Notes under the pieces: model-generated
The model's database searches: none
What the model saw: the letters and a program-made list of their open reading frames with translations, nothing else
What the model was told of the DNA's origin: nothing
Origin: Armatimonadia bacterium
GTDB lineage: Bacteria; Armatimonadota; Zipacnadia; Zipacnadales; UBA11051
Length of the DNA: 11,567 nucleotides
Assembly (NCBI GenBank): GCA_039683575.1
Contig: JBDKRC010000336.1
Location: 1 to 11,567 of the forward strand
Reading direction: 5' to 3'
Program-made: the position numbers and the translations under genes
Shown: in pieces, positions 1 through 9,963 of the stretch
How positions within the stretch are numbered: position 1 is the stretch's first letter
Layout: every line of letters starts with the position of its first letter

Positions 1-471
1 GGCGTTCGGGTTGGGCTGACGGTACTGCCGCATGACCTTGCCAAAGGCCAGACTGAGGTGTTCGCCGGTCCCGGCGTCGCCGCTGGCGGCAAAGTAGCCG
101 CTGATCACCACCCCGCAGAGCGTGGCGATGAAGTAGTCACCGGTGGGCGCGCCCTTGCCGGTCTTGCGCAAGGCCACTGCCGCATAATCGAACTTGCGGC
201 CCCTCGCGCAGGCATCCATGATGGCGGGTGACATGTCGTCGGTCGGCCTGGTGATCTCTACGGTGCTGCTGGGCATCAGCAGGCCGTCAGGCTCATGCAC
301 AATCGGGCATGAAAAGCTTCTGCCCTCGAACCAGCCCCGATGCTGAGCCTGGGTGCACAGCCCGGGCAGTCCATCCAATTTGAAGTACACGGTGTAGGCG
401 GCCCAGGCTTGGGCGCTTGGGACAAGGAAGAGCACCAACAGGGCGATGAGACTCAGATGACGTCGTTGCAT
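1..471 (-). CDS. Hcp-like (T6SS tube, PF05638-like) protein with N-terminal Sec signal peptide; 3' end runs off the window
   Basis: Manual translation from ATG 471 is open to base 1: MQRRHLSLIALLVLFLVPSAQAWA-AYTVYFKLDGLPGLCTQAQHRGWFEGRSFS...VEITRPTDDMSPAIMDACARGRKFDYAAVALRKTG...DYFIATLCGVVISGY...EHLSLAFGKVMRQY. This follows the Hcp pattern (F-K-DG-G---H--WI; D--SP-L--AC--G; V-ISS; E-VSL-F--I--EY). SD GAGGTG lies upstream. Confidence 0.85.
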   Translation of the reverse strand, partial: MQRRHLSLIALLVLFLVPSAQAWAAYTVYFKLDGLPGLCTQAQHRGWFEGRSFSCPIVHEPDGLLMPSSTVEITRPTDDMSPAIMDACARGRKFDYAAVALRKTGKGAPTGDYFIATLCGVVISGYFAASGDAGTGEHLSLAFGKVMRQYRQPNPNA

Positions 472-570
472 CAGAGCACCTCTTCCCGAATCATGCTTCA
501 GACCGGCTGAAATGGCCTCAGCGGCTGTGGAGGCCGATTACGGCGAGGCCTGGTTTGGGATGCCTTTCAC

Positions 571-999
571 TCACCTTGTGAGCTTATCCAAGCGAGTGAT
601 CCCATTCAGTGACGAGAGCTTGCGGTCAAATGAGTAGAGGCGCCCTTCGCACTCTGCCATCGCGAGAGCGCAGGCGCAGGCGTCGCCGAAGTGGGGAACA
701 TCTGTCGCAAACAGTGCGAGCGCCCTCAAGTACAGGTCTTTCCCCGGCATGAGGAGCCCAGGGGCCAGTAGCAAGTCGGTCAGGCCCTCGCTGATGCGTT
801 CGCGGGGAAGATGGTAGACGGAGCCTAGAACGAATACAACCTCCGACAGAATAACCGGATCGCACAGCAGACGCCGCTTACCCGTGCTGACGCCCCGCAT
901 GATGTCTTGGGCGGCCTTGTCGTGCCGAGGGTCATCCCGCACCAGATAACGAACAATCACATTAGCGTCGACGGCGCACACAGGCTCGGGGTCAGTCAC
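571..999 (-). CDS. vapC: PIN-domain toxin (VapC family ribonuclease)
   Basis: The four acidic PIN positions are present: VDANVIVRYL, LSEVVFVL, FGDACACALA, LYSFDRKL. GTG start with GGAGG upstream; overlaps the antitoxin gene by 8 nt. Confidence 0.9.
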   Translation of the reverse strand: MTDPEPVCAVDANVIVRYLVRDDPRHDKAAQDIMRGVSTGKRRLLCDPVILSEVVFVLGSVYHLPRERISEGLTDLLLAPGLLMPGKDLYLRALALFATDVPHFGDACACALAMAECEGRLYSFDRKLSSLNGITRLDKLTR

Positions 1000-1240
1000 T
1001 CATGGCCTCCTGTGCGACGGCTCTCTCCATGATCTCATGTTCCTTCTCATGCGTCATGCCAGGGATGGCATACTCTGCGAAGATACCGTGAAGTTCCTCT
1101 ACTGATCGCACTCGCCGAAGCACTACTTCATTGTCACGAACTTCAACTTCCATGCGCGACCGCGGCTTAATACCGAGTTTCTTACGGACGTCAACAGGTA
1201 GGGTCAGCTGTCCCTTTTCGGAAATTGCTATTGTAGTCAT
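992..1240 (-). CDS. AbrB/MazE/SpoVT-family antitoxin, 82 aa
   Basis: ISEKGQLTLPVDVRKKLGIKPRSRMEVEVRDNEVVL is a swapped-hairpin signature. Start moved to ATG 1240 because SD GAGGTG precedes it and the longer ORF overlaps the promoter. Confidence 0.92.
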   Translation of the reverse strand: MTTIAISEKGQLTLPVDVRKKLGIKPRSRMEVEVRDNEVVLRRVRSVEELHGIFAEYAIPGMTHEKEHEIMERAVAQEAMSD

Positions 1241-1262
1241 ACATCTCACCTCAATGACTACA
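1232..1262. promoter_or_regulatory. Inverted repeat, probable TA autorepression operator
   Basis: Perfect 9-bp arms TGTAGTCAT (1232-1240) and ATGACTACA (1254-1262) with a 13-bp spacer; spans the predicted transcription start, SD and start codon. Confidence 0.65.
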
Positions 1263-1289
1263 TTATACCCCATTTCCTACCTAATGCAA
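1262..1289 (-). promoter_or_regulatory. sigma70-type promoter of the TA operon
   Basis: Minus strand reads TTGCAT-N16-TATAAT, ending 21 nt upstream of the antitoxin ATG. Confidence 0.75.
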
Positions 1290-2782: not shown

Positions 2783-4282
2783 TTAACGCCTTGCGCCTTG
2801 CCGGCGGAGGAAGGTGACAATCTCATCAAAGTCCTGTGCCGCGCTGAGGGGCGACTGGCCCTTGTGTTTGTAGTTGACATCTGCGCCGAGTTTGACCAGC
2901 GCCCGGCAGGTCTGAAGGTCTCTGCAGGAGGCGGCGGCGATCAGCGCCTGATTGACATTGGCCCCGTGGGCAATGAGATACCGCAGCGAGCGCTCATCCT
3001 TACGCTCCAGCGCGATGCTCAACATTGACACACAGCCATCACAGCCGCTGGCTGCATTGACGTCAGCCCCGTGGTCAACCAGCCACTTTACCATCGGGAA
3101 GTTGCCGATAGCGGCCATTAGAGCGGTGTCAGTGGCGCAGTCGCCGCCGCTGCGCTCCTCGAGTTTGGCTCCGCGTGCCACGAGGTACTTTACTAACTCG
3201 AGATTTCCTGACCTGGCGGCGAGGTACAGCGGATGGTACTCCGCCCCATCCAGGTCGAGAGAGGCGTTAGGGCCAATGCCACGCGCAATGAGACGCTTGA
3301 CGGCCCTGAGGTCGCCGGCCGCTGCAGCCATGTGGATACTGTCATCGCGGCGCGCACCACGCTCGACCAGCAGCGCTGTCGCTTCCGGTTGCCACAGGAA
3401 GGCGTAGGATAGCGGGGAACGGCTGTGTTTGTCCTTTGCATTCGGGTCAACACCTTCGTCAAGACGTTGCTCCAGCACACGCAGGTCGCCCTCGCGAGCG
3501 GCCTCGAAGATGCTCTTTGAGGCTTGGCATCTGGCGTCTATCACGCGAGCATTGGCGTCCTTGCCTGCGTTTTTCGCGGCCCATATAGGGGTGGTACCCT
3601 CGTAATCCTCCACCATCAGGTCGGCTCCTGCATCGCAGATGATGGTGACCGCCTCTTTGGAGTCGGACATTGCTGCGTAGTGCAAGGCCGCCTTGCCACT
3701 ATTGTCGCGAGCCTTCACCTTGGCTCCAGCGGCCAGCAGCGCCTTGATAGTGGCCAGATTGGAATACTCACAAGCCAGGATGAGCGGTGTCTTGCCGTCG
3801 TTGTCAGCTTTGTTAGTGCTCGCTCCCGCGCCCAGCAGCAACTCGGCCACCTCCGAGCCGCCTGACCGGCACGCAATCATGAGCGGCGTCCGCTTCCAGC
3901 AGTCTGCCGCATCCACCGTGGCTCCTGCTTCGAGCAGCAACTCGCAAGCCGTTGCTGTCTTGCTCCCGGCTGCGGTGTGCAGAGGGGTAGAGTCCTCCCA
4001 TGCCCGTTGGTCCACAGGCGCGCCCCGACGCAGGAGCAGTGACAACACTCGGCGATTGGGGCGCTGTGCTTGTACCAACCTGTGAATTGGCGGCCCGCCG
4101 TTGCGATCAACAGCCGTTGGACTTGCCCCCAGGTACAGCAGCCCCAGCGCCAGACTGGGGTGGTCCCTCTCGATAGCCTTGTGCAGCAGCGTATCGCCCT
4201 TGATGCGCACCCTCGGCAGCACAACTGCCGCCAGGGCAACCGTAGCCAGCCCGATGATCACAACCAGTCTGCGTCGCTTCAT
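2783..4282 (-). CDS. Ankyrin-repeat protein with N-terminal signal/membrane anchor, 499 aa
   Basis: More than ten ANK-like repeats (TPLHTAA, TPLMIAC, TPLILAC, ALHYAA, PLYLAA, LVxxGAxVN). MKRRR is followed by hydrophobic LVVIIGLATVALAAVVL. Start chosen at ATG 4282 (GGGGGA upstream). Confidence 0.92.
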   Translation of the reverse strand: MKRRRLVVIIGLATVALAAVVLPRVRIKGDTLLHKAIERDHPSLALGLLYLGASPTAVDRNGGPPIHRLVQAQRPNRRVLSLLLRRGAPVDQRAWEDSTPLHTAAGSKTATACELLLEAGATVDAADCWKRTPLMIACRSGGSEVAELLLGAGASTNKADNDGKTPLILACEYSNLATIKALLAAGAKVKARDNSGKAALHYAAMSDSKEAVTIICDAGADLMVEDYEGTTPIWAAKNAGKDANARVIDARCQASKSIFEAAREGDLRVLEQRLDEGVDPNAKDKHSRSPLSYAFLWQPEATALLVERGARRDDSIHMAAAAGDLRAVKRLIARGIGPNASLDLDGAEYHPLYLAARSGNLELVKYLVARGAKLEERSGGDCATDTALMAAIGNFPMVKWLVDHGADVNAASGCDGCVSMLSIALERKDERSLRYLIAHGANVNQALIAAASCRDLQTCRALVKLGADVNYKHKGQSPLSAAQDFDEIVTFLRRQGARR

Positions 4283-4409
4283 CTGTAATCCCCCAGGTAT
4301 GCAAGCGTTTGCTTCTCTTGGTGCAAAATGCGCCAAGGGCGCAAGTTCTTCCCGTCTATGGTCTGCCATCGTCAGGCATTCCTTCCGCGCGGCGAGAGAC
4401 CTTCCGCTA

Positions 4410-7551: not shown

Positions 7552-9963
7552 ATGCGCTGGCGATTCCCTGTTGTCGTTGCCATCCTGGTCGGCGTAGCCT
7601 CATATGCCGCAGAGACCTCGCTGCCGTTGGTCAATGGCGGCTTTGACGAAGGTTCAAAGGGCTGGACCATGCCTGCGGATGGCATGGGGACGCTGTCCGA
7701 GGAGCAGGCGGCCAGCGGCAAGTGGTCGCTGAAGATCGTGGACGAGGACGACAAACGGGGCTCAAACGTGACGGCAGCGCGGGTGCCGATCCGCGGCGGG
7801 GGCGTGTATGACCTGCGCGGCAAGTACTTCGCGGTCTCCGGCGAAGGGCTGGGGATGTACCTGCGGACGTATGACGCCGCGGGCACGATGCTGAACGGGC
7901 CGGATTCGCATCTGGTGGGACTTGGCGGCACCGACCGCAAGTGGCGCTCCTTCGCGGGGCGCCTGTATGCGGAACCCAACGCGGCCTCGCTTGAGATAAT
8001 GGTCCACAGCTACAACGCCGCGAAGGTGACCGGCTATCTGGATGACTTGCAGTTGGTGGATGTGGGGATGGAGGGGCTGAAGCCGCCGTGGGAGGGACAG
8101 TACAAGCTGCGCCCGGCGGACAAGGAGAAGCTGACGGCGGCAGACGTGGTGGGGCCGGATGGGATTGTGTATCCGAACTGGACGCGGTGCGGCGTGCAGG
8201 GCGGCATCCCGCAGGTGAAGGAGTTTGCGACGCTGGAGCGCTATGGTGGCAAGGCGAATGATGGGCTGGACGACTCGGCGGCCCTGGACCGGGCTTGCGA
8301 GGAGGCAGGAAAGGCTGGCGGGGGAGCGATAGTGCTGGGGGCTGGGACCTATTATCTGGATCGCCCGGTGACTGTCCGGCAGGGCGGGGTGGTGATCCGC
8401 GGGGCTGGCGCGGGCAAGACGCGGGTGATGTTCCGGTACGCGGTGCCGCCGACTGGCGCGGCCTTCTTCACGCCCGCGGCAGGGGCCAAGGTGGGGAAGG
8501 GGACGCGGCTGGAGTTGCATTGCCGGCCTACCGAGCTGCAGCGCATGACGATGCTGGTGGATGATACGGTGATCGGGGAGTGGGGGAGAAGCACACATTC
8601 GGGCAACACGTTCAGCTTTGCACGTTACGGGCGCGACGCCATCGGCAAGGTGCCGGATGGGTCGCATGTGCTCAAAGGGACCGGAACGTACCTGGACGGT
8701 TCGAAGGTGAGCGCGGAAATACCAATCGTCCTTGACAGCACCTACAACGACGCGACGCCGGTACCCAACAGCCGGGCGGCCATCATGTTCGAGGGGCAGG
8801 GATATGCAGGGCCGAGGCTCAAGCTCGCGGAGGATGGCAAGCGGGGGAGCACGGTGCTCAAGCTGGAGAAGGCGGAAGGGTTGGCGGTTGGGGACTGCAT
8901 CCTGATTGAAGGTCCGGCCACCGAACGCTGGAAGACCCTGACGCAGAATATGTGCCTGTGGGGGACGTACCGGCGGTATGAGACCACGGTCAAGCGAATC
9001 GAGGGCAACACGGTCACCCTTGAGCAGCCGCTGCGCATCGAGTTCCCGGTAATTGACGGCTCATACGTGCAGAAGATCGTGCCGATACAGCGGTGTGGCG
9101 TCGAGGACCTGTATCTGGAACAGACCGAGAACCTGTGGATCAGCAGCATCGTGTTCTCACACGGCTGGAACTGCTGGGCCAAGGGCGTCACGATCAAGAA
9201 AATGGGGCGTTTCCCGGTCTACGGCTCGCACGCCAAGTGGTGTGAGATCCGCGACTGCGTCTTCGATGACGCCTGGTTCAAAGGCGGGGGCGGGACGGCC
9301 TACGCGGGTTGGGAGAACTCGTGGGACTGCTTGATGGATGGCATCGAGACCTTCAAACTACGCCACGCGCCGCTGTTTCAGTGGGCGGCCAGCGGCTGCG
9401 TCATCCGCCGGGGTGTGTTCCACGACAGCGACGCCCAGTGGCACTCCGGCTGGACCAACGAAAACCTCTTCGAACAGTGTGTGGTCGAATCGGTGATGGG
9501 CAACGGCGGCTACGGCTTCGGCATGTGGGCCTCCCCGCCCGAGGACAGCGCGCATGGGCCGAACGGGCCGCGGAATGTGGTCTACAACTGTGATGTGAAG
9601 TCGCCGAAGGCGGGGCTGTGGATGGGCGGGATGAACGAGAACTGGATCATCGCGTACAACCGTTTCGACGTGGGAGCCGGGCCCGGCATCTTCGCCAAGA
9701 CCGCCAGCTTCGACCACCTCATCAGCGACAACGTGTTCATCCTGCGTGACGGCAAGTCGGCGCTGCTGCAGCTTGCGACGCCGGACTGTATCGGGGTTGA
9801 GCTACGCGGCAACAAGCTCTATGGCGGCAGCGGGCAGTTAAGCAGTGGGATCGGCAAGCCCGAGGTCGTGGAGGGGAATGTGGCGCTGCCGCTGGGGGAG
9901 GCGGCGCGGCCGCAGCCGGCGGTGCCGTCTATCTATGAGTGGCAGCTAAGGAACGTGAAGTAG
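7552..9963 (+). CDS. Secreted multidomain protein: CBM4/9-like domain + pectate-lyase-3-like beta-helix with inserted Ig-like domain
   Basis: Signal peptide MRWRFPVVVAILVGVASYA. LVNGGFDEG..W..AASGKWSLKI..YLDDLQL is a CBM-like pattern. YGGKANDGLDDSAALDRA..GGGAIVLGAGTYYLDRPV..VVIRGAGAGKT is a beta-helix N-cap. Asn/Cys-ladder coils follow. SD GGAGGG. Confidence 0.85.
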   Translation: MRWRFPVVVAILVGVASYAAETSLPLVNGGFDEGSKGWTMPADGMGTLSEEQAASGKWSLKIVDEDDKRGSNVTAARVPIRGGGVYDLRGKYFAVSGEGLGMYLRTYDAAGTMLNGPDSHLVGLGGTDRKWRSFAGRLYAEPNAASLEIMVHSYNAAKVTGYLDDLQLVDVGMEGLKPPWEGQYKLRPADKEKLTAADVVGPDGIVYPNWTRCGVQGGIPQVKEFATLERYGGKANDGLDDSAALDRACEEAGKAGGGAIVLGAGTYYLDRPVTVRQGGVVIRGAGAGKTRVMFRYAVPPTGAAFFTPAAGAKVGKGTRLELHCRPTELQRMTMLVDDTVIGEWGRSTHSGNTFSFARYGRDAIGKVPDGSHVLKGTGTYLDGSKVSAEIPIVLDSTYNDATPVPNSRAAIMFEGQGYAGPRLKLAEDGKRGSTVLKLEKAEGLAVGDCILIEGPATERWKTLTQNMCLWGTYRRYETTVKRIEGNTVTLEQPLRIEFPVIDGSYVQKIVPIQRCGVEDLYLEQTENLWISSIVFSHGWNCWAKGVTIKKMGRFPVYGSHAKWCEIRDCVFDDAWFKGGGGTAYAGWENSWDCLMDGIETFKLRHAPLFQWAASGCVIRRGVFHDSDAQWHSGWTNENLFEQCVVESVMGNGGYGFGMWASPPEDSAHGPNGPRNVVYNCDVKSPKAGLWMGGMNENWIIAYNRFDVGAGPGIFAKTASFDHLISDNVFILRDGKSALLQLATPDCIGVELRGNKLYGGSGQLSSGIGKPEVVEGNVALPLGEAARPQPAVPSIYEWQLRNVK

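Follow-up and report, generated by a model that had tools for sequence, protein, structure and literature searches.

The question raised by this locus is a testable one: what role a tail-tube ring may have where sheath, baseplate, and spike are all lacking. Type VI secretion systems (T6SS) are commonly recognized by Hcp, their standard marker and textbook substrate without a signal peptide, whereas the gene considered here, at the edge of a contig from an Armatimonadia genome, encodes an Hcp-like protein that opens with an apparent Sec signal peptide. The answer that we favor, with a probability of about 0.6, is that this Hcp is exported by Sec and likely forms a single ring, which may be a scaffold for binding, or a carrier, located either in the periplasm or at the cell surface.

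The Hcp-Like Gene and Its Predicted Product

The analyzed stretch of DNA (11,567 nt, hereafter the window) is the entire contig C336 of genome G000, a 6.2-Mb assembly that is 96% complete and consists of 352 contigs. The hcp-like frame occupies positions 1–471 of the minus strand, running from an ATG at 471 to base 1 through 157 codons and staying open at the contig edge, as described in the sequence-only reading that preceded this analysis. Using a near-identical relative as a query, the C-terminal codons and the stop were located in the same genome at the end of contig C259 (G000:C259:16117–15944, minus strand), which supplies residues 157–213 of the 213-codon gene. The join of C336 and C259 completes the predicted gene as a signal peptide, an Hcp domain, and a tail of approximately 45 residues; the extension toward the C-terminus that had been proposed thus returned a 213-aa protein with a short tail, followed on C259 by a Gfo/Idh/MocA oxidoreductase gene and no T6SS. 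Two full-length and near-identical cluster mates (213 and 214 aa) are labeled by NCBI as Hcp of Armatimonadia MAGs, under the name "type VI secretion system tube protein Hcp". Residues R148 and N156, close to the contig edge, are replaced by W and D in 97%-identical relatives, and would be either strain variants or contig-end errors.

A Shine-Dalgarno-like GAGG (479–482, minus strand) stands 7 nt ahead of the ATG, and none of the four alternative in-frame starts within the first 40 codons has a GAGG-like motif. Positions 1–471 were compared with a strain contig, and of the 11 substitutions listed there, 10 affect the third base of a codon, whereas the remaining one (A22S) leaves a small residue; this tally is a hand count, with 34 more rows over 1500 bases beyond it. 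The third-position bias suggests that the gene is under selection. The strain comparison used sequencing runs X1–X4, with X4 having no coverage of hcp; X4–X9 account for small shares each, and no RNA run turned up. Intact frames of 213–215 aa are present in strains and congeners, and G001, one of three additional genomes from this genus, lacks the gene. Neither tblastn nor three Hcp profiles returned a paralogue in the own genome. A homologue search by shared words confirmed 1 protein among 22 candidates, a metagenome scan found one locus, and an Atlas search returned Hcp clusters exclusively.

Residues 1–24 (400–471, minus strand) make up a predicted Sec signal peptide of the signal peptidase I type, beginning with MQRRH, continuing with a hydrophobic core, and ending in P-S-A-Q-A-W-A. 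The n-region has a net charge of +2, the best uncharged 11-residue segment reaches a Kyte–Doolittle mean of 3.25, and A-W-A stands directly before the domain; the rest of the protein has no long hydrophobic segment (best 19-mer, 1.5). Signal peptidase I demands small residues at positions −3 and −1, and by a heuristic assessment these are present together with the basic n-region and the hydrophobic h-region. Cleavage would most likely follow A24, and a cut after residue 22 is possibly compatible as well.

The signal test applied throughout was a fixed rule of our own, requiring any in-frame start, a positive n-region, and, ahead of the domain, an 11-mer that is free of charges and has a hydropathy of 1.8 or more. 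As a control, 79 Hcp loci were drawn from GTDB genomes, among the 80 best of 585 confirmed matches; of these, 64 were called T6SS-linked by tss genes in their flanks, one of them via tagJ alone. The test was passed by none of these 64 T6SS-linked loci, by none of 6 T6SS-linked Hcps from plasmids, and by 4 of the 15 control loci without tss neighbors, the other 11 being signal-less. The original claim of a 24-aa Sec signal fused directly to an Hcp domain withstood this comparison, in that the protein passes a rule failed by 64/64 T6SS-linked Hcps, and its closest homologues, at 43–52% identity, retain a similar signal-like N-terminal segment. We regard Sec export and cleavage of the protein as very likely.

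The Hcp/TssD domain (22–387, minus strand; residues 29–150) matches PF05638 along the full profile (positions 1–129) with 45.5 bits, as compared with a cut-off of 23.5, and scores below the cut-off for TIGR03344, the T6SS tube family (22.7 vs. 58.9 bits). In a phmmer comparison with solved structures, Hcp proteins came out on top and A25 was aligned with the first residues of the solved chains, which agrees with the earlier statement that the mature N-terminus is level with the canonical Hcp start. The structure model of a 213-aa relative (pLDDT 83, pTM 0.76) has the Hcp layout, a two-sheet barrel with one helix resembling solved Hcps, and a low-confidence tail. The 23 Foldseek matches listed for this model are, without exception, Hcp itself or chains that contain it, the top ones with TM-scores of 0.85–0.88 by target length and an E-value of 1e-12. 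The assignment to Hcp, for which a PF05638 search had been recommended, is therefore upheld by both profile and structure.

The single helix (205–231, minus strand; residues 81–89) corresponds to the element that binds the adjacent subunit in Hcp hexamers, according to PMC3925092. The loop after strand 2 (262–312, minus strand; approximately residues 54–70) is 8 residues shorter than in T6SS-context Hcps, as the first reading had noted: counted from the alignment, 28 residues separate two anchor columns, vs. 35–38 (median 36) in 70/70 T6SS-context Hcps, a fairly close-knit set with a mean identity of 52%. The same loop has 26 to 49 residues in the exported Hcp classes, and the mean identity of the protein to T6SS Hcps is 24%. 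The four cysteines pointed out earlier are present, and carry little weight, since T6SS-context Hcps have a median of two (four in 2/70), no position of the four is fully conserved in the four closest sequences, and one is the usual helix cysteine of the family; the cysteines were rejected as a sign of export. The tail of approximately 45 residues after the domain is private to the subfamily and conserved there. It was likewise rejected as a shared sorting tag, the tail profile matching subfamily members alone (next best in the genome, E = 0.025).

Insertion Site and Search for an Injection Machine

Upstream of hcp lies a pair of genes for an AbrB/MazE-type antitoxin and a PIN toxin (571–1273, minus strand), whose position relative to hcp varies among strains and relatives. 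The antitoxin gene has a low GC content (51%), and a near-consensus sigma-70 promoter (10/12) is found ahead of the pair at 1290–1262, from which hcp could be transcribed. Between the PIN gene and hcp, a decayed 50-nt copy (508–557, minus strand; 84%) of the 5′ end of the oxidoreductase gene (cf. G000:C259:15798–15847) marks a rearranged insertion site. One strain contig diverges at 559 and another carries 1177 extra bases between 1280 and 1311, which points to an insertion hotspot in the interval between the DegT aminotransferase gene and the oxidoreductase gene. This variable slot holds hcp, the toxin–antitoxin pair, and unrelated genes in changing order. The neighbors of hcp are thus the PIN/AbrB pair, the DegT aminotransferase, and the Gfo/Idh/MocA oxidoreductase, with no vgrG adjacent, and no neighbor common beyond the genus was found by locus comparison. 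The window also encodes an ankyrin-repeat protein whose N-terminus includes a hydrophobic segment (2783–4369), an 803-aa secreted-looking beta-helix protein (7552–9963), two DegT-family aminotransferases, and a PHP-like protein.

Scanning of the six other large ORFs of the window yielded no tss gene, in line with the initial observation for these 11 kb. A profile search of the 96%-complete assembly found no PF05943, PF05954, PF05591, PF05936, PF04984, or PF04717; TssC, TssB, and TssK thus gave no match, nor did the hub of VgrG/gp27, the OB domain of VgrG, or a sheath of the phage type, and the single Hcp is the only match to come out of the proposed genome-wide search for tss genes, vgrG, and paralogues. 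An E. coli control was positive in each T6SS profile search, and the search covered these six families together with Hcp. Within this scope, a T6SS cluster was found neither downstream of hcp nor elsewhere in the genome.

In the wider samples, which contain many incomplete genomes and non-independent kin, TssC is present in 0/61 genomes of the order and 0/401 of the phylum, vs. 19/61 and 60/401 for Hcp, and 341/401 genomes have no Hcp match at all. The NCBI annotation of such proteins as T6SS tube protein is therefore misleading. Among 64 Hcp-positive genomes (a weak match in G007 being excluded), a phage-type sheath gene occurs in 10 and a VgrG-type OB domain in 7, always on contigs other than the Hcp contig and never in G000. 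The absence of Hcp from most of the phylum, together with the variable site, suggests an accessory job.

Exported Relatives, Tat Partners, and Six-Domain Chains

The 85 Hcp matches of Armatimonadota include 48 that pass the signal test and 30 more that follow a twin-arginine three-Kelch gene; these and the following tallies are plain counts over non-independent kin. Within the order, all but two of the 30 matches pass (28, the window gene included), the exceptions being G024 (signal-like by eye) and G007 (the weak match); the signal-bearing Hcps of the order have a mean pairwise identity of 23%. Outside the order, 20 of 55 matches pass. Five of the 20 (L066, L079, L061, L067, and L073, from genomes G074, G087, and G100) have lipobox-like cysteines, judged by eye, and short hydrophobic C-terminal tails, and it is possible that they are membrane-tethered rings. 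The 35 non-passing matches comprise 27 located directly behind a twin-arginine three-Kelch gene of approximately 200 aa, 3 second copies in such units, and 5 (5/55) with neither signal nor Kelch partner (G349, G365, G310, G245, and G141), of which G245 is apparently broken and G141 is a weak match.

Both arginines of the Tat motif are invariant in 24/24 aligned Kelch partners. A reverse search of the 401 genomes, with a profile built from 24 of the 27 loci and at most the seven best candidates scored per genome, retrieved 27 full-length Tat-Kelch loci in 26 genomes, all of them upstream of a signal-less Hcp (L033:1426–2547, L036, L045, L078, L084, and 22 more). None of the signal-bearing Hcps has a Tat-Kelch neighbor, and the own genome of the window yielded no such partner (best E-value 0.0015; nothing at 1e-25). 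Export by hitchhiking, or piggy-back, through Tat carries signal-less subunits, and the placement of the signal-less Hcp directly behind the twin-arginine gene makes these relatives, as distinct from the window gene, a candidate Tat hitchhiker pair. A whole Hcp ring may exceed the width of Tat, so that subunits or part-rings would have to travel. In MAGs of Actinomycetota and Chloroflexota, three signal-less non-T6SS Hcps follow a dirigent/allene-oxide-cyclase-like gene identified by Pfam matches below cut-off (L118:4418–5480, L127:2–809, and L138:642–2781), with a twin-arginine segment in two and the third cut by the contig end; eight further signal-less loci without tss neighbors have no such upstream partner. 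The dirigent-like gene is possibly a second, independent Tat partner.

Signal-bearing Hcps were also observed in Nitrososphaerota archaea, one Verrucomicrobiota MAG, and one Saccharibacteria MAG (L143, L190, L173, and L178), and L190 and L173 each adjoin a second signal-bearing Hcp. Divergent signal-bearing paralogues also stand in tandem, two or three per array, at L024, L027, L029, and L030 (G032) and at L020 and L025 (G017), and are candidates for mixed rings.

The best 150 of 819 relatives from a 50%-clustered library, retrieved with a phmmer query that contained the signal peptide and hence enriches signal-bearing matches, comprise 69 single-domain proteins that pass the signal test, 34 single-domain proteins that do not, 13 with two domains, 27 with exactly six, and 7 with four, five, or seven. 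A Pfam scan of 36 library proteins identified six Hcp stretches in 24 of them. The six-Hcp chains include P0005–P0017, P0019–P0021, P0023–P0026, P0033, P0036, P0039, P0141, and others; the six copies are near-identical in P0026 and diverged in P0005 and P0009, and P0091 has seven domains. Modules of the Ig, PKD, Calx-beta, dockerin, cadherin, or RTX type are frequent on the six-Hcp chains, and a planctomycete export motif gives a sub-cut-off match to one of them and can be made out by eye in others. The model of one six-domain chain has a pTM of 0.80 over 1048 residues, which implies a defined and presumably ring-shaped packing.

In a quick tree of 110 sampled rows, where 64 of 107 inner branches are open and long branches meet, the window protein, its G002 orthologue, and P0004 form a small clade (SH-aLRT 97), with the window protein on a long branch. 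An interleaving of signal-bearing and Kelch-coupled Hcps is the only other arrangement that this tree supports.

Proposed Role and Rival Explanations

As we picture it, the Hcp-fold protein would cross the inner membrane via Sec and shed its signal peptide, leaving an N-terminus level with the canonical Hcp start, and six subunits would assemble into a single ring, a scaffold to which other proteins could bind within the periplasm or at the surface. The hexamer is suggested by the retained helix and barrel strands and by the exported multi-domain relatives, which mostly stop at six; the 24% identity to T6SS Hcps and the long branch mean that the ring could have been lost, and on balance we consider a hexameric ring of the window protein likely. 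Little or no stacking into tubes is expected, since neither VgrG nor a baseplate turned up and the protein has a shortened version of the loop that has a fixed length in T6SS Hcps. According to PMC3925092, Hcp alone does not build tubes, the tubes of EAEC Hcp in vivo require VgrG, and the stacking contacts tested are those of a different loop and the C-terminus; that the strand-2 loop aids stacking is our own inference, to be set beside those other contacts. A binding job of the window protein is proposed by analogy, because Hcp rings bind cargo and the Kelch-coupled relatives invariably occur with a single small exported partner.

The central claim of the sequence-only reading, a tube-fold protein repurposed for Sec export, has held up: profile and structure both match Hcp, the export signal passes the heuristic, and no neighboring T6SS came to light. 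Its further suggestion of a module in a larger surface protein fails for the window gene, with 213 aa and a short private tail, and applies to many of the relatives.

The exported subunits might instead stack into a sheath-less, non-contractile tube or fiber in the envelope or on the surface. The fold is after all that of a tail tube, and divergent tandem paralogues, as in fiber systems, are seen in G032 (7 matches) and in the arrays at L024, L029, and L030. We nevertheless judge stacking to be unlikely, given that no conserved initiator, tip, or anchor gene lies nearby, that the loop is 8 residues shorter and a tail of some 45 residues follows the domain, that six-domain chains with bulky modules suit one ring better, and that the EAEC tube depends on VgrG, according to PMC3925092. 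Lower in probability is a defensive decoy, whereby the rings would bind and neutralize incoming effectors or tail parts of the machines of competitors or of phages. Its patchy distribution (60/401 genomes), the fast divergence within the order (23% mean pairwise identity among signal-bearing Hcps), the site held jointly with a toxin–antitoxin pair, and the binding of effectors by Hcp rings (described in PMC5874247) would all agree with such a role. Against it, the neighbors are by eye chiefly genes of housekeeping or metabolism and not of defense islands, and the fixed pairing of relatives with a single partner suggests a dedicated complex.

It is improbable that the N-terminus is an uncleaved anchor or is untranslated, so that the protein would be cytoplasmic or would serve an injection system encoded in the unassembled part of the genome. 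The assembly does consist of 352 contigs at 96% completeness, there is an in-frame GTG at codon 28, and sheath and VgrG-type OB genes exist in 10/64 and 7/64 Hcp-positive genomes; however, that GTG lacks a ribosome-binding motif, homologues at 43–52% identity retain the signal-like segment, and the sheath and OB genes lie off the Hcp contigs, with none in the own genome and TssC in 0/401. A decaying remnant of a lost T6SS, at present functionless, would fit the low identity to T6SS Hcps and the absence of the gene from G001, and is hardly credible in view of the intact 213–215-aa frames, the third-position bias, and the conserved private tail.

Returning to the proposed exported ring, its relation to known systems is one of fold rather than of class. 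With T6SS Hcp/TssD (PF05638, TIGR03344; PDB 7fcf, 5xhh, 1y12, 3eaa, and 4w64) the window protein shares the whole-profile match, the strand–helix layout, the ring-contact helix, and the canonical mature start, and differs in the signal-like N-terminus, the shorter loop, the 45-residue tail, the sub-cut-off TIGR03344 score, and the lack of tss genes near it or found in its genome. Phage tail tubes and the tubes of extracellular contractile injection systems are related to Hcp and are put together in the cytoplasm from subunits that have no signal peptide; they have the tail-tube fold in common with the window protein, whose genome is without PF04984 sheath, PF05954 hub, and PF04717 OB spike. 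Orphan hcp genes of hcp/vgrG/PAAR effector islands, which lie beside vgrG, PAAR, or effector genes and serve a T6SS encoded elsewhere (as stated in PMC10433429), resemble the window hcp in standing alone in a variable site with no tss cluster; unlike them, the window protein has an export signal, and neither vgrG nor a T6SS was found in its genome. The protein appears to be Hcp-like in fold and probably ring-forming, yet falls outside the T6SS tube class, because TIGR03344 is below cut-off, the machine is lacking, and a signal is present.

Searches of the open literature, at the level of titles and abstract openings, found no description of signal-peptide Hcps, six-Hcp chains, or the Kelch pairing. 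A term search of a 2026 preprint on Hcp (10.64898/2026.06.15.732508) gave nothing relevant, and one of a 2023 review (PMC10433429) gave nothing on exported Hcp. The window gene probably belongs to a broad, undescribed class of exported Hcps with a job different from that in T6SS, and the phylum sample indicates that the Hcp fold also leads another life outside the cytoplasm. Naturally occurring rings of this kind, whether secreted or built from one chain, bear on the evolution of tail-tube proteins and on protein nanoring design, and the two-gene unit of Tat-Kelch and Hcp offers a minimal system for reconstituting export, ring assembly, and partner binding.

More tentatively, at somewhat less than even odds, the Hcp ring may have been domesticated many times as an envelope or surface module with no role in injection, a six-fold socket that reaches the outside by at least four routes. 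These would be an own Sec signal, as in the window gene; a lipoprotein signal; hitchhiking on a Tat partner, namely a three-blade Kelch half-propeller in Armatimonadota or, in Actinomycetota and Chloroflexota, a barrel of the dirigent-like kind; and incorporation into surface proteins of the RTX or planctomycete type, as six domains forming a ring within one chain. The ring would seat symmetric partners much as T6SS Hcp seats the VgrG trimer. Two three-blade Kelch chains would make one six-bladed propeller, and dirigent-type barrels are trimers, so that both partners would suit the ring symmetry, a match that we put forward as a hypothesis only. In one Tat-Kelch unit (L064:1529–2399, on G120:C371), the second signal-less Hcp carries what by eye is a C-terminal dockerin-like repeat.
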